Assembly: GCA_964402895.1 (NCBI GenBank) | Contig: CAYODR010000002.1 | Location: 41,666 to 105,665 of the forward strand | Length of the DNA: 64,000 nucleotides | From: an uncultured Candidatus Saccharibacteria bacterium | Lineage (GTDB): Bacteria; Patescibacteriota; Minisyncoccia; Phycocordibacterales; UBA9973 | Reading direction: 5' to 3' | In this document: piece by piece, positions 12,781-43,640 of the stretch | How the letters are laid out: every line of letters begins with the position of its first letter | Position numbering within the stretch: position 1 is the stretch's first letter | Notes under the pieces: model-generated | The model's input: the letters and a program-made list of their open reading frames with translations, nothing else | What the model was told of the DNA's origin: nothing | The model's database searches: none | Program-made: the position numbers and the translations under genes

Positions 12781-12807
12781 ATCACGCCGCCCTTCGGGCG
12801 GCGTGAT
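12781..12807 (+). terminator. rho-independent terminator
   Basis: cacgccgcccttcgggcggcgtg GC hairpin followed by ATTTATATTT. Confidence 0.75.
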
Positions 12808-12814
12808 TTATATT

Positions 12815-12892
12815 TGAAAACAACACAACATGTTTATATTTAGAAACAACATAATATGTTTATATTTAGAAACAACATAATATGTTTATATT
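12815..12892. repeat. 3 x 26-bp tandem direct repeat, each containing palindrome AACATA-A-TATGTT
   Basis: tgaaaacaacacaacatgtttatatt / tagaaacaacataatatgtttatatt x2; upstream of membrane protein-recG unit. Confidence 0.75.
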
Positions 12893-12981
12893 TAAAAACC
12901 TTTTCTAGTGTTTTATATTTTAAAAACTTTTTCACATCTCTTATGTGGCACTTTCAAATTTAAAGATGTATAATATATTTA

Positions 12982-15619: not shown

Positions 15620-16108
15620 TTAACAATTTATCTCTTGATATTTTTGCTCACTTACAAGTCTATCAAGTTTTGGTACAAGCATTCCTTCTGATTCTTCAAG
15701 CTCATATCTAAGCTTAATTAAACCATCATTTACAATTTTATAAATTTCTCTTTCCGAATTTTGAGAACCTTCTACTGTATATGAAAATACTGCCTCTATC
15801 TTATCCCCCTTCACAAAACCATCAATATCGCCAAAATACCCATTAGACATGGTCGGGCCAAATTGAGTACCAACTTTTTTTCCACTAACAATATTACCAT
15901 CAAAATCTAAACTAATCCTCTCGCTAACACTATAAGGAGCATCTTCTAACGCTCTTTGTTCATACATAAAACACCTAGAAAATTCTTGAAAAGTACCTGT
16001 ACTAATTACACCCACATCTTCTTGATTGTTTTTATTTAACACCAAAAGTACCGTACTAAATACTACTATTGCAATCACACCTAAAATCAAAATTTTTTTA
16101 AAATTCAT
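15620..16108 (-). CDS. hypothetical secreted protein
   Basis: 162 aa; N-terminal TM/signal ILILGVIAIVVFSTVLLV. Confidence 0.45.
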   Translation of the reverse strand: MNFKKILILGVIAIVVFSTVLLVLNKNNQEDVGVISTGTFQEFSRCFMYEQRALEDAPYSVSERISLDFDGNIVSGKKVGTQFGPTMSNGYFGDIDGFVKGDKIEAVFSYTVEGSQNSEREIYKIVNDGLIKLRYELEESEGMLVPKLDRLVSEQKYQEINC

Positions 16109-16175
16109 AAATACATTATCTCATGAAATTAAGATAATCCTAAGTTTTTTGACAATAACACGGGGTTATGATTAT

Positions 16176-16733
16176 ATGTCTCTAAATACTAAATCAATAT
16201 ATATGAAAAAAATCAAAGAAATCTCTGGATACCTGGGCGTAGACCAGAGAGAGCTTGAGCTGAATCTTGGTGTATATAATGCACCGAAAAGTTTTCATGA
16301 AGCTCAAAATATGTATGATATTTTGATAAATTTAAATAATAAAAATCTTCTTGATAAACTTTATCAAGACTGGAACAAACTCTATGTTTTTGCTTTAAAC
16401 AGAAGTAACAACCTAAAGGATCTTAAAAATCTATTTGAGAAAATTCCTATAGTTTTACCCGCCACTGAGAGAGTATTGCATAAATGGAAAATTCGCTCAA
16501 AAATAGATATTAGACTACCTCACAATCTTCGGAGCCTAAAGTATCTGTATGAAAATATTTACTTTAGACCCAATGATTGGGAAATGAAATCTGAAGCATT
16601 TGCAATGTACACGGAAGAAACAGAGGTATTGCTTGAAAATGCTCAAAGCTTAAAAGACCTTAAATATATCTTAATGTATGGCGAGCCGAACATTAAAAAA
16701 AGGGCTTTTGAAAAAGTAAAAAAATTACTTTAA
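16176..16733 (+). CDS. hypothetical protein
   Basis: Start trimmed to ATG 16176 (MSLNTKS...) to avoid overlap with convergent upstream gene; no family recognised. Confidence 0.4.
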   Translation: MSLNTKSIYMKKIKEISGYLGVDQRELELNLGVYNAPKSFHEAQNMYDILINLNNKNLLDKLYQDWNKLYVFALNRSNNLKDLKNLFEKIPIVLPATERVLHKWKIRSKIDIRLPHNLRSLKYLYENIYFRPNDWEMKSEAFAMYTEETEVLLENAQSLKDLKYILMYGEPNIKKRAFEKVKKLL

Positions 16734-20360: not shown

Positions 20361-20735
20361 GGGGATGACAGGTTTCGATATATAAATGCTTTAAATATAT
20401 GCATACCGAGCATGAATAAACTCGTTAAATTTATTCAAAACGATTAACTGGCAACAGTATCGCAAAAGTAAAGTCACCTTTTAGTGGCTTTGCTCCGGCA
20501 TTCGCTTAAATAAGCCAATCTGGTGTCGTACGAAGTGAAACTTGATAACTTCATTACGGCAAAATTCATCAAGTTATAGTTTTATACTGTCTTGATATAA
20601 AACTGAAAATAAAAGACTCGAAGAAATATCATTTTGTAAGGTTTATAGATTTTCTTTTAAAAAACAAAACCATACTAAGTATGTAGATTATATTTAATGC
20701 CTTATATACACGGGGTTTCGATACCCCCATCTCCA
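20361..20735 (+). ncRNA. ssrA: transfer-messenger RNA (tmRNA, ssrA)
   Basis: 5' GGGGATGACAGGTTTCGA pairs with 3' ...CATCTCC+A (tRNA-like acceptor); T-arm GGGGTTTCGATACCCCC; internal tag ORF ...AKVKSPFSGFAPAFA-TAA; directly after smpB. Confidence 0.8.
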
Positions 20736-20742
20736 CAAAAAA

Positions 20743-23971: not shown

Positions 23972-24511
23972 TTAACTATTTTTAATTTTCTTAAGCAAAT
24001 TAAAGCTATTAGCATGAATACAATGCCCTAGATAAGAACTTACCTTAGGAATATCTTTGATTTGGATAAAACCATCTTTTTTATTCAAAATTTCATTATA
24101 AAAACTTTTAATATCCATTTTTAAATAAAAAAGTCTTTGCCTATTTACACCCCCGCGAGTAATAAAAAATCGCGCCCTCTTAAAAGCACGGTGTGTCCCC
24201 CTACCAATCCTATTGGCAAAAGAGCTATCCAAAAATTGTTTCTCAAAAATCTCTTCTATTTCATTACACAAAAGATGTTGAACTATCCTGTCCCTAAAAT
24301 CACTAGCAAAAACTTCCCTTGGTGCAGGATTTTTTACTACAAAACATATATGTCTAGATATTTTGTATTCCCCACTCTTTAATTCATTCAACAATTCTAA
24401 CAAATTAGCCTCACGATTTAATTCAAATTTTAAAGCATTTGTAGTATTTTTTTTATTTCTTATACATTGCTTATAAGCCATGTATAAATTTTTCATTGTA
24501 AAAATCGTCAT
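23972..24511 (-). CDS. DGR-type reverse transcriptase, C-terminally truncated (domains 1-3 only, no YxDD)
   Basis: 179 aa; NPAPREVFASDFRDRIVQHLLCNEIEEIFEKQFLDSSFANRIGRGTHRAFKRA matches the conserved DGR RT N-terminal block (FRDRVVHHALCN..E.IFE..F...SYA.R.GKGTH.AL.R); motif 3 YLKMDIKSFYNEI; ORF ends ~50 aa later. Confidence 0.75.
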   Translation of the reverse strand: MTIFTMKNLYMAYKQCIRNKKNTTNALKFELNREANLLELLNELKSGEYKISRHICFVVKNPAPREVFASDFRDRIVQHLLCNEIEEIFEKQFLDSSFANRIGRGTHRAFKRARFFITRGGVNRQRLFYLKMDIKSFYNEILNKKDGFIQIKDIPKVSSYLGHCIHANSFNLLKKIKNS

Positions 24512-24546
24512 ATAATAAATATATTAGACCAAGCAAAAAAAGAATA

Positions 24547-25338
24547 CTAGGCGGCACAGCGGACATACCTCCCATTAGTAACGCTATGCCTATTCACACT
24601 ACCATTATTGAAATTCTGGGGGTAAGCATAGGAACTAGAAGAAGAAGTAGAAGACCAGTAAGCGCCCGAAACAAAGGAAAGGTTCCCACTTTGTGCTCCA
24701 TAGTCATTGATAGCTTTTAGGATTTCAACAGATGGAAGTCTTTTACCAAGTGAAGCACAGGTATTGTTGGCATTAGCCCAATTTAAAAGTGTGGTACTAT
24801 CATTTATATCATTTGCATCTAATGTGATAACTCCTGTTGTGTCTACTCCGTAGTGTCTATTGTTGTAGTATACTGCCACACCGAAGTTTCTAGTCTCTAG
24901 GGAGTCTTCTGGGACATAGTGAGTATTTAATGTGGTATCTGGAACATTTGAAGTTCTAACAACACATCTGATATTTCCTGCTCCTGCAATACTTACGAGT
25001 GCATCTATCATGGGCTGTATTGATGAGTGTGGTGATATACCTGTTTTGTTGTATGCACAAAGTCCTGCAAATGTACCATTGTCTAGGTGGTATAGTTGTG
25101 CTTGAGTTTGAAGATTCTTTAGATTTGATTTGATTGAAGCTACTCTACCACTTGTGCGAGCTGAGTTTAGTGATGCGATAACTACACCTGCGAGGATTCC
25201 GATGATTGCAATCACTACTAAAAGTTCAATGAGCGTGAAGGCTTTATTTTTATTATTAAAAATTTTTAGCGCAGAGAAACTCTTTTTAGAATAGCGCCCC
25301 TTCATTTGTATTTTTGGATGAAAGGTTAATTTTTTCAT
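24547..25338 (-). CDS. type IV pilin-like protein with C-terminal FGE/C-type-lectin-fold domain carrying a DGR variable-region scaffold
   Basis: Start at MKKLTFHPK (25338). Prepilin N-terminus NNKNKAFTLIELLVVIAIIGILAGVVIASLNSA. C-terminal C..LGKRLPSVEIL...GAYWSSTSSSSSYAYPQNFNNGSVNRHSVTNGRYVRCAA ends the ORF. Stop is 35 nt upstream of the DGR RT ORF. Confidence 0.75.
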   Translation of the reverse strand: MKKLTFHPKIQMKGRYSKKSFSALKIFNNKNKAFTLIELLVVIAIIGILAGVVIASLNSARTSGRVASIKSNLKNLQTQAQLYHLDNGTFAGLCAYNKTGISPHSSIQPMIDALVSIAGAGNIRCVVRTSNVPDTTLNTHYVPEDSLETRNFGVAVYYNNRHYGVDTTGVITLDANDINDSTTLLNWANANNTCASLGKRLPSVEILKAINDYGAQSGNLSFVSGAYWSSTSSSSSYAYPQNFNNGSVNRHSVTNGRYVRCAA

Positions 25339-25549
25339 GTTTTTATTATAACATAGATATTTTATAAAAAGTACAATATACTTACCTTGATAAAAACAAC
25401 AAAATTCCAGTATTAGGTTTATTTTTTCCATAATCCTATCATTTTAGCTATTTAATCCTATCATAATGATAGGATTAGTAAAAAAATTTTAAGCTTTATA
25501 TTTATTAAATAAACTTGCATATGATAATATCATATGATAATATCATACT

Positions 25550-25760: not shown

Positions 25761-26033
25761 ATGAAATCTATTATTTATGAGATAGAATATACACCTAGTT
25801 TTCTTAGAACATTTAAAAGACTTAACCCTCGTCTCCAAGAGGAAATAGAGGATACTTTAGAAAAACTTAAATATTCAACTAACCATGAAAAATTAAAAGT
25901 TTATAAACTAAATGGTAGATTAAAAAGTTTCTATAGTTGTTCAGTAAATTATAAATATAGAATTATTTTTGAATTTAAAAAAAATAAAATTCTACTTATT
26001 ATAAATTCTGGTGATCATAGTATATATAACTAG
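25761..26033 (+). CDS. type II toxin, RelE/ParE family
   Basis: 90 aa; ...KLNGRLKSFYSCSVNYKYRIIFEF... conserved RelE/ParE core. Confidence 0.7.
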   Translation: MKSIIYEIEYTPSFLRTFKRLNPRLQEEIEDTLEKLKYSTNHEKLKVYKLNGRLKSFYSCSVNYKYRIIFEFKKNKILLIINSGDHSIYN

Positions 26034-26035
26034 AA

Positions 26036-27145
26036 TTATAATTTAGTTTTCAAAGAAACTATCTTTTCGTATGTTTGATTTATCCTATCTATAGATATTT
26101 CTCCATTTTGAACTGCATCATATATCATTTTTCTAGCTTCAAAGTATGAATCTGGATTGTACTCCGAAATATTATTTGAAAGTACGATTATATCTACTCC
26201 GGCATTGATAGCAAGTACTAATGCATTTTTTCTGCCGAAATTATCAGTGATAGCTTTCATATCCATATCATCACTTATTACAAGTACATCATCACAGCCA
26301 ATATTTTTAAGTACATCTAGATGTTTTTTAGAAAGAGTTGCTGGATAAACATCATCTACCTTACGATTAAATACATGTCCTACCATGATAGCTGAAAGCC
26401 CTGCCTTACAAGCTCTTTCAAATGGAACAAGCTCGTACTGCTTATAAGTATTCGTAATATCTGTAAAACCTTTATGGCTATCGGATAGCGCGCTCCCATG
26501 CCCAGGAAAATGTTTACCGACTGGCATAATGCCAGCATCAGAAAGCCCGTTTGCAAAATTTATTCCTTTTATAGATACAACACTTTGAAGGTGTGAAAAT
26601 GCGCGCCCTACAGCTCCGATAGCAGGACTTTTAGGATTTACTCTTACATCTAAACTTGGAGCAAAATTCATATTAAATCCTAAATATTTTAAGGTGGTGC
26701 CTAAATTATAAGCTATATTTTTTACAGCTAAATCCGTAAAAGATCCGAGTACAAAAGCTGAGGGCGTTGTGTAGTATCCTGGAATAGTTTTTAATCTACT
26801 CACACGCCCGCCCTCTTCATCTATACTAATGAATGGCTTGGTCTTAGATAGGGAAATTATATCTGCATTTAACTTTCTTACTTGTTCATAGTCTTTGATA
26901 TTGCGAATGTACTTTTTAGTTGGAGTATCATAATCAAAAAGTATTACTCCTCCAAGATTTGTTTCTGTGAGTGCGCGTTTTAAATCAGGAGCACTATCAA
27001 TATCAAAACCTCGAAATCCAACAATAAACATCTGGTCTATCCTATCTTGAATAGAGACTTCGCTTGAAGCAAATGAAACACTAAAATGAAAACTAAATAC
27101 AAATAAAGAAACAAGTAGTGACTTAATAAAATTCATACCTTTCAT
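26036..27145 (-). CDS. glycoside hydrolase family 3 (NagZ-like beta-N-acetylhexosaminidase), secreted
   Basis: Signal peptide; GVILFDYD, KHFPGHGSALSDSH catalytic region of GH3 N-terminal domain. Confidence 0.8.
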   Translation of the reverse strand: MKGMNFIKSLLVSLFVFSFHFSVSFASSEVSIQDRIDQMFIVGFRGFDIDSAPDLKRALTETNLGGVILFDYDTPTKKYIRNIKDYEQVRKLNADIISLSKTKPFISIDEEGGRVSRLKTIPGYYTTPSAFVLGSFTDLAVKNIAYNLGTTLKYLGFNMNFAPSLDVRVNPKSPAIGAVGRAFSHLQSVVSIKGINFANGLSDAGIMPVGKHFPGHGSALSDSHKGFTDITNTYKQYELVPFERACKAGLSAIMVGHVFNRKVDDVYPATLSKKHLDVLKNIGCDDVLVISDDMDMKAITDNFGRKNALVLAINAGVDIIVLSNNISEYNPDSYFEARKMIYDAVQNGEISIDRINQTYEKIVSLKTKL

Positions 27146-27158
27146 TATAGTATGAATC

Positions 27159-27779
27159 TTACTTAATCTCCAAAACTTTCTTTCTTAGAGAAGATTTTAT
27201 CTCTTCAAAACTTATCTGCATTTGATTTTTATAAATAATCTCTTCCTTTTCTATATCATCAAAATATACTAACGACTTTAAGATAAGATTAGTATCAAGA
27301 GTAGGTAGTTTTTCTTTTGAATACTTTAAAACATCTGAAAGAGTAAAATCTTTCAAAATAAAATACATATCTACATAATCCTTCATCGCACTACGACTAG
27401 AGATGGCGGAGCATTTCATACAAGCAATATCTAAAATAGAAGCCATTTTAAAATAATCTGTGTTAACAAATGGCTTAATCATCTTGTATTTATAAGACAT
27501 AAAACTTATTTTAATCTCATTGTCTACAATAATTCCTAAAGTATTTTTTTCTTCTTGTACCTTTACTATTCTATCTAACCCAAAAAGTTCTGATATATGA
27601 TCAAACAATTTTTCAGTATCTATGTCTACTTCAGTAAAAAAATCAAAATCAATACTATCTCTATGTCCTATCTGTAAAGCCAATGCTGTGCCCCCAGCTA
27701 AATAAAAATTATATACAGTAATACCTCCAAGTATTGGCAGTATATCTTTTCTCTTCTGATCTAAAATATCCCAATGCAT
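27159..27779 (-). CDS. nucleotidyltransferase AbiEii/AbiGii toxin family protein
   Basis: 206 aa; YLAGGTALALQIGHRDSIDFDFF motif typical of AbiEii (DUF1814). Confidence 0.7.
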   Translation of the reverse strand: MHWDILDQKRKDILPILGGITVYNFYLAGGTALALQIGHRDSIDFDFFTEVDIDTEKLFDHISELFGLDRIVKVQEEKNTLGIIVDNEIKISFMSYKYKMIKPFVNTDYFKMASILDIACMKCSAISSRSAMKDYVDMYFILKDFTLSDVLKYSKEKLPTLDTNLILKSLVYFDDIEKEEIIYKNQMQISFEEIKSSLRKKVLEIK

Positions 27780-27783
27780 AAAA

Positions 27784-28050
27784 TTAAAATCTACTTTTTA
27801 TTGCTGAATCAATACCGTATTTCATTGACCAGTAATTTAAAGATTTTTTATTTAATTCATAAGATTTTTTATTAAATACCTTTTTAATATCATCTTTTGA
27901 GTAGACATCTTGTAATTTATCAGTAGCCTTTTTGGTGCCCAAATTAAGCACATTTAATATAATGCGCTCTTTATCTTTCTCTAAATCCATTTTGGATATA
28001 TCATAAGACCATAAAAACGGCTTAAATTCTACTGGAACAGATCTCTTCAT
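27784..28050 (-). CDS. hypothetical protein, putative AbiEii partner (antitoxin candidate)
   Basis: 88 aa, 4 nt upstream of AbiEii gene; no clear AbiEi wHTH recognised. Confidence 0.3.
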   Translation of the reverse strand: MKRSVPVEFKPFLWSYDISKMDLEKDKERIILNVLNLGTKKATDKLQDVYSKDDIKKVFNKKSYELNKKSLNYWSMKYGIDSAIKSRF

Positions 28051-29839: not shown

Positions 29840-29862
29840 GGTGTATATATTATAACAATATT

Positions 29863-33541: not shown

Positions 33542-33727
33542 TTACCAAGAAGACTTGCGAATGCCCGGAATCATGCCCTCATTAGCAAGTTCACGGAAGC
33601 AAATACGACATAGTCCAAAATCACGCATAAAGCCATGTCGACGACCACAGCGGAAGCAGCGATTCACAGCGCGAGTACTATATTTTGGTGCCTTTTGGGC
33701 ACGAGCTATAACTGATTTCTTTGCCAT
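33542..33727 (-). CDS. rpsZ: 30S ribosomal protein S14 type Z (zinc-binding)
   Basis: 61 aa; CxxC...CxxC zinc ribbon (CFRCGR...CRIC). Confidence 0.9.
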
Positions 33728-33978
33728 AATTCTTTTAATTTAAATAATTCTCAATGCAATATCTCACACCCCCTTCTTAGACATCATTAAAAATGAAGAG
33801 AAAGAAAGAAATATGGATTACAAAGAGTGCTAAAATACTAACAAAATAAAGCCTTTTTGTCAATTTGAGAACCTTAAATTATTTTATAAAACAAGAAAAA
33901 TCTATTTTTATTCCAAATGCTCCGTATCTTGCCTATGTATTTGGAAGAGAATGTATTATGTCTTATGTATAAAGAATG

Positions 33979-34797
33979 CTAGGCGGCACAGCGTACATGG
34001 CCGGAACTGGTAGTAGCGCCCCTGTACACACCACCATCAGGGAAATACTGGTTGTAAGCGTAGGAGCTTGCTGACAGAGTAGACGACCAATAACCGTCTG
34101 CAAGGAACCCAAGGTTTGTCGTCTCAGATTCACCTTGCGCTCCATAGTCATTGATAGCTTTTAGTATTTCTATTGATGGAAGTCTCTTGCCTGCTGTAGC
34201 GCATCTGTCCATAGCTACTTGCCAATTAGTAGCACCACCATTATCTGCAGAATCAAGAGTGACAACTCCTGTAGTGTCAACTGCGTAGTGTGTTTCGTTA
34301 AAATATACAGCTACACCGAAGTTCTTAGTCTCAAGAGAATCTGCTGGTATAAAATGTGTAGCTCCAGTACTTGGTACAGAAGCAGTACGTACAATACATC
34401 TAACATTGTTTGCTCCTGCAATACTTGTAAGTGCATCTATCATAGGCTGGATTGACGAATGGTATCCTTGAGGAGTACCTAGGGCTGCATAATTATTTAG
34501 ATTTGAAACTTGTCCGCATAATCCTGCAAAAGTACCATTGTCTAGGTGGTATAGTTGTGCTTGAGTTTGAAAGTTTTTAAGATTTGATTTGATTGCTGCT
34601 ACTCTTCCACTTGTTCTGGCTGAGTTTAAAGATGCGATGACGACTCCTGCAAGGATACCTATGATTGCTATTACTACTAGAAGCTCAATGAGCGTGAAGG
34701 CTTTATTTTTATTATTAAAAATTTTTAGCGCAGAGAAGCTCTTTTTAAAATAGCACCCCCCTATTTGTATTTTTGGATGGAAGGTTAATTTTTTCAT
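33979..34797 (-). CDS. type IV pilin-like protein with C-terminal FGE/CLec-fold DGR variable-region scaffold (paralog of 24547..25338)
   Basis: N-terminal ~115 aa nearly identical to the other copy (MKKLTFHPKIQIGGCYFKKSF...KAFTLIELLVVIAIIGILAGVV). C-terminal ...GKRLPSIEIL...DGYWSSTLSASSYAYNQYFPDGGVYRGATTSSGHVRCAA. Inserted between rpsZ and rplE. Confidence 0.75.
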   Translation of the reverse strand: MKKLTFHPKIQIGGCYFKKSFSALKIFNNKNKAFTLIELLVVIAIIGILAGVVIASLNSARTSGRVAAIKSNLKNFQTQAQLYHLDNGTFAGLCGQVSNLNNYAALGTPQGYHSSIQPMIDALTSIAGANNVRCIVRTASVPSTGATHFIPADSLETKNFGVAVYFNETHYAVDTTGVVTLDSADNGGATNWQVAMDRCATAGKRLPSIEILKAINDYGAQGESETTNLGFLADGYWSSTLSASSYAYNQYFPDGGVYRGATTSSGHVRCAA

Positions 34798-34851
34798 GTT
34801 TTTATTATAACATTTATATTTTTTTCAACAAAGACAAAATGTAAAAAACAA

Positions 34852-34876
34852 AAAACCGCTTGATGCGGTTTTTTGT
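34852..34876 (-). terminator. terminator downstream of rplE
   Basis: aaaaaaccgcttgatgcggttttttg. Confidence 0.6.
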
Positions 34877-35410
34877 TTAAGCCTCTTTCTTAAAAGGCAT
34901 TCCTAGATATTCAAAGAATTTTGTTGCTTCTGATTTATCTTTTGCACTTGTTACAAGTGTGATAGATAGACCAAATACATCTCTTAAATCTTCATCAGAA
35001 GTTTCTGGGAAGATAGTGTTTTCTTTAATACCCAAAGTCATGTTTCCAATACTGTCTACTGACTTTTTATCAATTCCTCTAAAGTCTTTTGTACGAGGAA
35101 GCGCTATATGAATAAGCTTATCAAGGAAATGAAGCATTCTTGCTCCGCGTAGTGTTACAGTTAGACCGATTGGATCACCCTCACGAATCTTAAAACTTGC
35201 AACTGATTGTTTTGCTACACGAAGAGATGGTTTTTGTCCTGTGATTTTTGCTAGACGGTCAGCGATAAGATTATTTCTTTCTCTGTCCTTTTTCATACCA
35301 CTACCAGTACCACTTGAAACTACGATCTTTAGAAGTTTTGGAGCAGAAAGTTTGTTTTTATAACCGAAAACTGAATTTGTGTTTTCTTGTTTTGTTTTAG
35401 TAATTTGCAT
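34877..35410 (-). CDS. rplE: 50S ribosomal protein L5
   Basis: 177 aa; operon position after rplX. Confidence 0.9.
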   Translation of the reverse strand: MQITKTKQENTNSVFGYKNKLSAPKLLKIVVSSGTGSGMKKDRERNNLIADRLAKITGQKPSLRVAKQSVASFKIREGDPIGLTVTLRGARMLHFLDKLIHIALPRTKDFRGIDKKSVDSIGNMTLGIKENTIFPETSDEDLRDVFGLSITLVTSAKDKSEATKFFEYLGMPFKKEA

Positions 35411-38685: not shown

Positions 38686-38768
38686 CTAAATATTATAACA
38701 CTATTTATTTTAAAGGTTCATAATGGTAACTAATTTTAATATTGTATTTTTGTATCTATAATAAAAAA

Positions 38769-39282
38769 CTAATTTGCTATTTTTACATAGTTTCCAGGAA
38801 TACTATTATTTAAAGAGGATTTTCTACAATTAAGATAGGTATCATATGACATATCTTCGCCAGATCCAGATTCTAGTCTAACAAAAATTATATATCTATC
38901 TACAGAACCAACGGGCGTACACCCCGTATAATCTCTTCTGTAATAAGCATACTCATGTGAATTTGGTAAACTTGAAATATATGGAGATAAAGAGTTAACT
39001 AGATTAGTTCTACCTGAATTACTTAAAAATCCTAAAGTTTCAGGGTAAATACCATTTTCAGCAAAATGCATTTCAAGTGCTGTTTGAATATTTTTAGCAG
39101 TAGCAAGCCTTGCGGCATCTCTCGCTTTACCTCTCGCACTATTTAAGCTTGCTATCACAACTGTTGCGAGTATTCCAATAATTGCTATCACTACTAATAG
39201 TTCTATCAGAGTGAAGGCTCTACTTTTTAGTGTATACCCCCCCCCCTATTTGTCTTTTAGAGTTTGCTGGTAAAATTTTCAT
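38769..39282 (-). pseudogene. type IV pilin-like gene, leader-peptide region frameshifted by a 10-nt poly-G tract (phase-OFF)
   Basis: ATG 39282 encodes MKILPANSKRQIGGG then the 10-G run (39237..39246) puts the pilin body (AFTLIELLVVIAIIGILATVV... from 39191) in another frame; removing one G gives MKILPANSKRQIGGGYTLKSRAFTLIELL. Confidence 0.65.
39237..39246. repeat. homopolymeric C10/G10 tract
   Basis: tataCCCCCCCCCCtattt. Confidence 0.85.
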
Positions 39283-39319: not shown

Positions 39320-39970
39320 TCAAATAGGTCCATTAGACATCCTATAATGAATAGCACCTGTAGATGTATAAGTTATTTTCCCACATCTTCTTTTTGTATT
39401 ATTATCCTCTGAAGATTCGTGCGGATCAAAAATATCATTAAGTTTATTAAAAATATCTAATAAAGAACTCTCTCCTGATGAAATAAAAAGATTAACTCCA
39501 TTAGTGGGAGCATTTGAAGTTGAGGCACAGGTTGAAACCTCATGGAAATTACCATCATTATCATACGCATAATTATTCCCATTATGAGGAAATGGAAACA
39601 CGGGCGCAGAAGAAAGATAATTTGAAAAATTAGTAGTATTTGAAGATATTGCTTGAGCTATAGATGGATTCGATGTACTTGAAGTTAAAGCATAAGTACA
39701 ATAAGTAGAAGCATGGCTATTTCTCTCTTTAGGCCAACAACCTGTTTCTAACAAAAGCATATTAAATGCCAATTCTATACTTCTTAGATCTGATGCAACT
39801 TTTGAAATTCTAGATTTCTCTCTTGCACTATTTAGACTTGCAATTACAACTGCAGCTAAGATTCCTATAATAGCTATCACTACTAGTAGCTCTATGAGGG
39901 TGAAAGCTTTTCTATAGGATGAATACCTAAATCTTATTTGCCTTTTAGAATCCGCCTGCAAATTTTTCAT
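39320..39970 (-). CDS. type IV pilin-like protein
   Basis: Start MKNLQADSKRQIRFRYSSYRKAFTLIELLVVIAIIGILAAVVIASLNSA; 216 aa; conserved upstream motif gtttttattataacat. Confidence 0.75.
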   Translation of the reverse strand: MKNLQADSKRQIRFRYSSYRKAFTLIELLVVIAIIGILAAVVIASLNSAREKSRISKVASDLRSIELAFNMLLLETGCWPKERNSHASTYCTYALTSSTSNPSIAQAISSNTTNFSNYLSSAPVFPFPHNGNNYAYDNDGNFHEVSTCASTSNAPTNGVNLFISSGESSLLDIFNKLNDIFDPHESSEDNNTKRRCGKITYTSTGAIHYRMSNGPI

Positions 39971-40133
39971 GTTTTTATTATAACATATAAAATACAAAGG
40001 TCCTTCGGGATCCATCTCCTAAAATGGAGATAGAAAAAGCTAGAGCATCAATGCTCTAATTTTTGTTTTTATATCTAAAAAATCTATTTATTGATATATT
40101 GATCTTTGGAATTTCTAACAAATACTAAAGCTT

Positions 40134-42929: not shown

Positions 42930-43640
42930 CTATTTACCACATAAAACTCTTCGAATTAGCGTTTTATCCTCAAGAACAGTTGATCCATTATCAAGCCTAA
43001 TCCTAAAAGCTGTATCAGCACTAACAGAAGTCCCTGACCAATATTGAACACTTGATGCATAATTTGCATTGTGAATATCAAATAAAGCTTTCATAGAAGA
43101 TACTCCTGGAACCCTTTTGCTAAGTGACGCACAATAAGCCAATGCCCCATCAAAAGTATAACTGGAAACAGAGCTTGCACTATCTAACTCTAAAATCCCA
43201 TGAGGGTCAGCAGTATAATTAATATCTCTATATAGCACGCCTATACCGAAATCTATTGAATTTAGAGTAGCGCTCCCGATATAACAATTTGCATTTGATA
43301 TAACATTTAGAGAATCTAAAATTGAAACAATTTTTTGATCATTACACAAACCAGCATAAGAACCATTATTATCTAAATAATACACATGTGCTTGAGACAC
43401 CGCATTTCTTAAATTAGATTTAATCGCTGCTATTCTCCCTCTATCTCTTGCACTGTTTAATGACGCTATCACTACCCCCGCAAGTATTCCTATAATTGAG
43501 ATGACGACTAAGAGTTCAATGAGAGTGAAAGCTTTACTTTTTATTGTATACCTCCCCATAGAATTTTTGAAAAATTGATTAACTTTTTCATTGGTTTTAT
43601 TATAACATTTAATAATTTCAAAAAGAAACCTTATCTTCAC
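42930..43640 (-). CDS. type IV pilin-like protein (start uncertain: 43640 or internal MGRYTIKSK at 43559)
   Basis: KAFTLIELLVVISIIGILAGVVIASLNSARDRG...; conserved MKKL-type leader ATG (43591) is out of frame at the GGGGAGG tract. Confidence 0.7.
   Translation of the reverse strand: MKIRFLFEIIKCYNKTNEKVNQFFKNSMGRYTIKSKAFTLIELLVVISIIGILAGVVIASLNSARDRGRIAAIKSNLRNAVSQAHVYYLDNNGSYAGLCNDQKIVSILDSLNVISNANCYIGSATLNSIDFGIGVLYRDINYTADPHGILELDSASSVSSYTFDGALAYCASLSKRVPGVSSMKALFDIHNANYASSVQYWSGTSVSADTAFRIRLDNGSTVLEDKTLIRRVLCGK

Follow-up and report, generated by a model that had tools for sequence, protein, structure and literature searches.

Pilin-like genes with C-type-lectin-fold tips and the remnant of a diversity-generating retroelement in an uncultured Candidatus Saccharibacteria bacterium

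Described retroelements and the two pilin-like genes

The diversity-generating retroelement (DGR) of Bordetella phage BPP-1 comprises Mtd, a template repeat (TR), Avd and the reverse transcriptase (RT) bRT, and an initiation of mutagenic homing (IMH) element and a hairpin lie 3' of its variable region (VR). DGRs are abundant in Patescibacteria, where they form a clade of their own (PMC8144416; PMC11661182). VRs overlapping the DUF1566 domain are a recognised category of DGR target (category 'd', or CLec2), exemplified by Legionella LdtA (Wu et al., 2018, PMC5758913). A 'G-type pilin' domain figures only as a rare VR-holding domain in a 2024 survey (PMC11661182), and the literature searched contained no detailed description of DGR-targeted type IV pilins of bacteria of the candidate phyla radiation (CPR). 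The present analysis concerns a stretch of 64,000 nucleotides (the window) from an uncultured Candidatus Saccharibacteria bacterium (GenBank assembly GCA_964402895.1, contig CAYODR010000002.1, positions 41,666 to 105,665) and two genes on its minus strand, A (24547..25338) and B (33979..34797). Both very probably encode type IV pilin-like proteins whose C-type-lectin-fold tip ends in a DGR VR, the cassette at A having collapsed and B being a second, remote target.

The locus resembles the BPP-1 system in its AAY-rich template (Y being C or T) and in a VR that ends a lectin-fold receptor-binding protein, and in relatives a conserved 3' element and a hairpin likewise follow the VR; however, it has another target family and another host, only a weak hairpin follows B, and its cassette does not function. 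The RT remnant found beside A belongs to the same RT family as the CPR/Patescibacteria DGRs of clade 2 (Roux et al., 2021, PMC8144416). The relatives in that family are small chromosomal cassettes in Paceibacterota and Saccharibacteria metagenome-assembled genomes (MAGs), with an Avd-TR-RT layout and adenine-specific TR-to-VR changes, whereas in the window the RT has no catalytic core, avd and TR are missing, and the VRs and their flanks alone remain. A and B share with LdtA the C-terminal DUF1566/Lcl_C domain, the C-type-lectin fold and a VR that forms the very C-terminus and ends in ..VRC..; LdtA is, however, a surface lipoprotein (PMC5758913), while A and B carry the domain behind the N-terminus of a type IV pilin. 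At its core the finding is an ordinary one, as DGRs are common in Patescibacteria and the DUF1566/C-type-lectin domain is a known target class. What the locus adds is a documented decayed cassette, with an internally deleted RT and the loss of avd and TR, a link between DGR targets and type IV pilins, and pilin targets placed within a conserved ribosomal-protein operon.

An earlier sequence-only reading had described A and B as two 'pilin-CLec' paralogs on the minus strand, and both the positions of the open reading frames (ORFs) and this label are correct. The ORFs open in a common start context, ATGAAAAAATTAACCTT, and encode proteins of 263 (A) and 272 (B) amino acids (aa) that are 70% identical. 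In the profile search, Pfam N_methyl was found in both over its gathering score (E ~2e-9), and Lcl_C/DUF1566 was found weakly at both C-termini, under its gathering score (E ~6e-7; for A 6.9e-7, with 30 bits against a gathering score of 34.9); the precomputed Pfam annotation nonetheless gives PF07603. The AlphaFold model of A, built from 24 homologs (pLDDT 83.8), has a long pilin helix at residues 36-87 and then a globular domain. The top PDB match of this modelled C-terminal domain is the C-terminal domain of Legionella Lcl (8q4e, E 1.1e-4, TMt 0.57), and it also matches the C-terminal domain of Bdellovibrio Bd2740 (8oks) and classical C-type lectin domains. With TMt of 0.57-0.64 and a root-mean-square deviation of ~2.5 Å, 8q4e and 8oks are the best structural matches, and their sequence identity to the A domain is 16-19%.

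The N-terminal part of the family profile matches solved type IV pilins (PilA, geopilin) with E values down to 5.5e-14. A has the N-terminal cleavage/methylation motif and the long hydrophobic helix of a type IV pilin, the residue preceding FTLIELL being, as read from the sequence, Ala and not the usual Gly. Profile match and fold place its C-terminal domain in Lcl_C/DUF1566 (PF07603), and a VR that ends this C-type-lectin-fold domain, with variable sites on template AAY codons, places A among the DGR targets. The family is large, with thousands of pilin homologs, many of them carrying both N_methyl and Lcl_C, and among the 24 homologs its most variable stretch is the C-terminal ~30 residues. 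The protein clusters of A, of B and of P0039, a third paralog on the same 106-kb source contig but outside the window, have one member each. As regards function, the pilin tip would presumably be an adhesin. Type IV pili of cultivated Saccharibacteria are implicated in episymbiosis and host binding (PMC11623550).

The locus of gene A and intact cassettes of relatives

Scanning species-representative genomes with the RT family yielded 80 loci, the closest of which belong to Paceibacterota, Parcubacteria and Saccharibacteria MAGs. Repeat pairs of 128-169 nt, i.e. canonical TR/VR pairs, were found in 15 of the 17 closest loci (L006-L022). In these 15 loci 70-100% of the mismatches, mostly 85-100%, fall on TR adenines, and the TR ends ~35 nt before the start of the RT. 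An ORF of ~120 aa lies between VR and TR in L006-L018, the ORF directly upstream of the TR in a further relative (L001) is a bAvd gene, and in four loci (L011-L014) the target is a type IV pilin N-terminus fused to Lcl_C, with an Avd gene between VR and TR. From this order of parts in relatives, the ancestral layout is reconstructed as pilin-Lcl_C(VR) - avd - TR - ~35 nt - RT.

At gene A, a DGR-type RT remnant of 179 aa with a weak RVT_1 match (23972..24511, minus strand) starts 35 nt downstream of the stop codon. Its homologs are RTs of ~357 aa with the motifs LPIGNLTSQ and YVDD, and it aligns to their N-terminal ~140 aa and C-terminal ~38 aa (..SYLGHCIHANSFNL). About 180 residues have been lost in frame, with a junction near 24100, and motifs 4-7, including LPIGNLTSQ and YVDD, are gone. 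Because the RT beside A lacks motifs 4-7, it is predicted to be unable to polymerise, and present-day mutagenesis by the local cassette, dead as judged from its sequence, is excluded. Shortened forms of this RT were also seen elsewhere. P0035 (227 aa; contigs of up to 82.8 kb from four sources) joins the RT N-terminus to the C-terminal ..SYYGHF.. segment in the same way as the window remnant, 97% of which it spans at 38% identity, and the closest homolog of the remnant (84%), P0002 (217 aa, on a 236-kb contig), ends directly after LPIGNITS. DGR RTs may commonly decay or may recur in a short form.

The 35 nt between the A stop codon and the RT start codon (24512..24546, minus strand; TATTCTTTTTTTGCTTGGTCTAATATATTTATTAT) are near identical to the sequence between the repeat end and the RT ATG in L087, L095 and L094, the closest relatives with an intact RT, and resemble the TR-RT spacers of L012 and L014 as well. 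Upstream of this TR-to-RT-type spacer lies the VR of A, from YWSST to the stop (24547..24660, minus strand), with a core of 27 codons (24547..24627). The repeat before the RT of L094 is a visible template, AAC/AAT-rich and translated as SATSSSFAYNQNFNNGNVNRNDVTNARYVRCAS up to the stop, to which ..YAYPQNFNNGSVNRHSVTNGRYVRCAA up to the stop corresponds in A; the framework common to A and the L094 TR is seen in AYNQNFNNGNVNRNDVTNARYVRCAS against AYPQNFNNGSVNRHSVTNGRYVRCAA. The 3' end of A is thus read as a frozen VR occupying the position that the TR has in relatives, avd and the separate TR being gone. Its GC content is 46%, against 38% in the gene body, and that of the B VR 56%; GC-rich VRs also occur in relatives. 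Two other markers were tried at this site and dropped. The T or C in TAG.A[T/C]TC, taken as a mark of VR versus TR, and a supposed 10-nt deletion after A were abandoned as L087, L095 and L094 have TATTC/GATTC and equal spacing before intact RTs. An assignment of the last third of A to the L012 TR framework gave undecisive counts of non-adenine mismatches, and the L094 TR settled the matter.

The position of the A 3' end relative to the RT is exactly that of a TR; five AAT codons are retained in A, and adenines are more numerous there than in B. These features would also be expected if the 3' end of A were itself the TR, forming the in-frame end of a pilin gene and serving as donor for B and other paralogs. 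This arrangement is improbable. Compared with the L094 TR, five expected AAY or A-containing codons are substituted in A (CCC, AGT, CAT, AGC, GGG), and of the adenines in the TRs of five other relatives 59-69% are preserved in A, which is within the ordinary VR range (50-76% in real VRs of relatives). Moreover, B differs from A at many non-adenine positions and therefore was not copied from A. The claim of the sequence-only reading that neither gene can be the template of the other is in agreement with this.

The following course of events is proposed for the collapsed cassette. In the system of the relatives, the RT copies TR RNA with errors at adenines and the resulting complementary DNA overwrites the VR, so that an AAY (Asn) codon of the template can give rise to many different codons in the tip of the pilin. 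At A, avd and the separate TR would have been lost, leaving the VR adjoining the TR-to-RT spacer. The likeliest cause may be recombination of VR with TR across their identical 3' ends: the invariant 3' end would be the longest unbroken VR/TR identity, and a crossover there would remove avd and TR and leave a full VR joined to the TR-RT spacer. The catalytic core of the RT would have been lost by an in-frame internal deletion. Since the cassette at A collapsed with the loss of RT core, avd and TR, the tip sequence of A would be frozen. DGR rewriting of these pilin tips is accordingly placed in the past, and the system is regarded as a fossil of a known kind.

The surroundings of the RT in the closest relatives were compared as well. 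Six independent short-read contigs (L087-L090, L094, L095) all start, at position 1, inside the repeat directly upstream of the RT; assemblies break at this point, and such a break is expected where a sequence is repeated or hypervariable. In L087 (56..1873) and L095 (55..1340), both with an intact RT, a pilin gene begins ~25-30 nt downstream of the RT, whereas in the window convergent rplT comes after the RT remnant. P0047, the pilin downstream of the RT in L087, has a TAA stop and no TAG.ATTC flank, and the hairpin behind it is a different one.

Gene B, its ortholog and the template

The VR of B (33979..34092, minus strand; core of 27 codons at 33979..34059) is followed by a VR-type 3' flank (33890..33981, minus strand) that reads TAGCATTCTTTATACAT, then CATTCTCTTCCAAAT...ATTTGGAA. 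This flank is homologous to the post-VR flank of L011 and L016, TAGCATTCTT.ATACAT ... CATTCTCTT.GAAA hairpin. With regard to the IMH-like 3' element and hairpin, B thus has a VR-type flank with a weak hairpin (33911..33946, minus strand; TTCCAAAT..ATTTGGAA), and A has a TR-type flank instead.

Independent evidence for past rewriting comes from the Logan contig L086, which shares 8.4 kb of synteny with the B region and has ribosomal genes 75-90% identical to those of the window and, where B is inserted, likewise a pilin-Lcl_C gene. This between-species comparison is the nearest stand-in for hypervariability within a population. Between B and L086, the last 27 codons show 15 nucleotide differences, all at codon positions 1-2 of eleven codons ending in C or T and none at a third position, and outside these 11 variable codons the two VRs are identical at every site. 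In the flanking genes, about a third of the third positions differ, and the differences at positions 1-2 and at position 3 number 360:845, against 15:0 in the VR (Fisher p = 1.7e-8). This pattern appears to be the product of repeated overwriting from a conserved AAY-rich template. B would be a second, remote target in a ribosomal-protein operon that has kept its VR-type 3' recognition flank, and it would have been rewritten from such a template after, or independently of, its ortholog in the other species.

The template inferred from B, L086 and the P0039 protein reads TAC GCT TAC AAC CAG AAT TTC AAT AAT GGT AAT GTG AAC AGG AAC GCT ACT ACC AAT AAC AAC AAT GTA CGC TGT GCC GCC TAG, and the template predicted for B is TACGCTTACAACCAGAATTTCAATAATGGTAATGTGAACAGGAACGCTACTACCAATAACAACAATGTACGCTGTGCCGCCTAG. 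Outside adenines, neither B nor L086 has any mismatch to the inferred template, whereas A has 10. The frameworks of the last third also differ, A being of the L094 TR type (..VNRxxVTNxRYVRCA) and B, L086 and P0039, the last as protein only, of the type ..VxRxATTxxxxVRCAA. Therefore, either the most recent writing of A and that of B used different templates (or versions of a template), or A drifted after the death of its cassette, two possibilities that are inseparable here. The sequence-only reading had taken both 3' ends for VRs written from one common A-rich template, with further ordinary divergence in their 3' part. That both are VRs and that the template is rich in AAT/AAC, as seen in relatives, holds, but a common template applies to the first two thirds only, and ordinary divergence is not the most fitting description of last thirds that follow different template frameworks.

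Measured against the L094 TR, codons 1-14 of the last 27 contain 12 A/B differences, 10 of them on TR adenines (odds ratio (OR) 20, p = 2.5e-4); in codons 15-27 the count is 4 of 14, which is non-significant. The TRs of five other relatives, applied to all 27 codons, gave OR 3-9 (p = 0.026 to 4e-5). The variable positions coincide with AAY codons in the TRs of L094, L012, L013, L014, L011 and L006. Once a real TR is used, the substitutions are therefore enriched on template adenines in the very region that the sequence-only reading had described. Its individual codon pairs (A/B: CCC/AAC, AAT/TAT, AAT/CCT, AAT/GAT, AGT/GGT, AAT/TAC) are exact in the codon table, as are the framework codons common to A and B (TAC TGG TC. 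TCT ACT ... TAC GCT TAC ... CAG ... TTC ... GGT ... GTG ... AGG ... CGC TGT GCC GCC TAG).

Several points weigh against the interpretation of A and B as DGR targets with a collapsed cassette. The A/B pair by itself is suggestive, its adenine and codon-position bias being non-significant. From YWSST to the stop (37 codons) there are 36 nucleotide differences, of which 16 have A in either copy, and differences at codon positions 1+2 and 3 number 22:14 there and 75:80 upstream (Fisher p = 0.20), so the adenine signature first noticed is clean over ~10 codons and without significant bias across the whole region. No catalytically complete DGR RT, with motif 4 [I/L]GxxxSQ and motif 5 YxDD, was found in the 64-kb window, where a six-frame motif search detected no Y[AVMILCT]DD in an open frame, its sole match sitting between stop codons. 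An adenine-tolerant sliding comparison and repeat finding gave no third copy of either 3' end in the window, and tblastn with 11 Avd proteins of relatives gave no match there better than E = 0.05. Lacking TR, avd and a complete RT, the window shows no sign of current mutagenesis. The hairpin after B has an 8-bp stem of -5.5 kcal/mol (z -0.9), compared with -14 to -24 kcal/mol (z ~-6) in relatives. The RT deletion might be an artefact of MAG assembly, and the contigs of the closest relatives (L087, L094 and L095) begin within the repeat and so represent this sub-clade only from that point onwards. Finally, the VR-TR recombination is deduced from the layout alone, and the evidence as a whole is assembled sequence.

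The cassette at A fails three defining features of a working DGR, namely a catalytic RT, a TR and avd. The search for a TR with AAT/AAC at the variable positions, empty within the window, succeeded in the relatives. The diagnosis of a DGR signature was therefore right in kind and partly right as to a single common template, and wrong if it is taken to mean a working DGR in the window. VR-like 'signatures' may outlast an active mutator, which calls for caution when DGR activity is called from comparisons of paralogs.

The weakness of the A/B statistics leaves some room for an explanation with no DGR at all, in which A and B would be plain paralogs, their ligand-binding loops having diverged by diversifying selection and gene conversion between paralogs. 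A and B have diverged along their full length. The upstream ~115 codons, previously thought near identical, are so only over the first ~95 (82-97% nucleotide identity in 20-codon blocks); identity falls to 51-80% beyond ~codon 95, and the 3' end, at 60-73%, is no outlier. The bodies of the paralogs look mosaic, the body of L086 being nearer to P0039 than to B. Nevertheless, this explanation is highly improbable, as it must contend with a DGR-clade RT remnant 35 nt from A, flanks with homology to those of TRs and VRs in intact DGRs, the enrichment of A/B differences on template adenines and the lack of third-position differences between B and L086 in the VR despite ~15% divergence of the neighbouring genes.

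Any diversification of B today would depend on a DGR outside the window. A possible, though rather unlikely, alternative to a fossil system is that it is still active in this manner. B, and possibly A, would then be diversified in trans by an intact DGR at another genomic site, such as the surroundings of P0039, comprising RT, avd and a TR with the B framework. B, P0039 and L086/P0042 are of one framework and differ only at AAY-type positions, and the 3' flank of B is 97% identical to that of L086 over the first 100 nt. Other pilin-Lcl_C paralogs have no RT beside them, which makes unlinked copies a frequent feature of these genomes, though two of these paralogs in related genomes (L092, L093) have no VR-type flank. 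The AT-rich ends, TAA stops and missing flanks of L092 and L093 indicate that targeted and non-targeted pilin-Lcl_C copies coexist. Against activity in trans, no full-length RT of the 106,003-bp source contig was present among the homologs of the remnant or of a full-length relative. In addition, the hairpin after B is degenerate, and A, with its non-adenine mismatches to the inferred B template, lacks a VR-type flank.

A more far-reaching proposal, which we regard as doubtful, is that the pilin-Lcl_C genes would be DGR-diversified type IV pilus tip adhesins for host recognition by ultrasmall episymbionts. Unlinked copies, one of them in a ribosomal-protein operon as its own leaderless unit, would be served by one template; VR-TR recombination would recurrently lock in adhesin specificity and discard the mutator; and B would still be live in trans. 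Two metagenome scans were made with sequences from these loci: a 23-mer common to A and B gave no match, and the TR-RT spacer gave a single chance match on an unrelated contig (L091).

Operon setting and surroundings of the genes

B lies between rplE (34877..35410) and rpsN (33542..33727). Compared with L086, the intergenic regions around it (33728..33978 and 34798..34876) are 92-97.5% identical and the adjacent ribosomal-protein genes 75-90%, i.e. the non-coding DNA by this pilin gene is better conserved than the coding DNA; an Rfam search of these conserved intergenic regions found no known RNA. An intrinsic terminator follows rplE upstream of B (34846..34878, minus strand), and an extended -10 box, TGTTATAAT, is located 6 nt ahead of the B start codon (34804..34812, minus strand). 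N_methyl pilin-like genes are dispersed in the ribosomal-protein operon at 33979..34797, 38769..39281, 39320..40015 and 42930..43640, the first being B. Two lie in the interval that separates rplB from the ribosomal genes next to it, and one is placed upstream of the L3/L4 genes. B, at least, is equipped with a terminator and a promoter of its own on its upstream side, and its insertion is kept in another species (L086).

Exact copies of the TGTTATAAT box occur on the minus strand at 25345..25353, 29849..29857, 34804..34812, 38692..38700, 39977..39985 and 43599..43607. Before A (25345..25353), as before B, the box stands 6 nt upstream of the ATG. Two copies fall inside the listed pilin-like ORFs 39320..40015 and 42930..43640, whose true ATG is probably just downstream of the box, and the remaining two sites are ahead of adk and of another gene. 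The spacing of the box suggests that the mRNAs may be leaderless or nearly leaderless. A run of ten G (39237..39246, minus strand) lies in the leader-peptide region of one pilin gene (ATG at 39281) and puts the body RAFTLIELLVV.. (ORF 38769..39191) out of frame, where nine G would give the paralog-like MKILPANSKRQIGGGYTLKSRAFTLIELL... The run is either a switch for phase variation by slipped-strand mispairing or a homopolymer sequencing error.

The stretch from A to the end of the ribosomal operon contains genes of toxin-antitoxin type (25761..26033, 27159..27779 and 27784..28050), encoding a HigB/RelE-like toxin, an AbiEii nucleotidyltransferase toxin and a DUF6922 protein, and a glycosyl hydrolase family 3 gene (26036..27145). 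The ORF at 16026..16733, considered as a further pilin on account of the synteny with L087, was checked and is no pilin. The window as a whole has a GC content of 34%. It also contains a transfer-messenger RNA gene (20361..20738, plus strand; Rfam RF00023, 99 bits), and a 26-nt unit (TTTATATTTAGAAACAACATAATATG) is repeated three times in tandem in the intergenic region 12807..12899.

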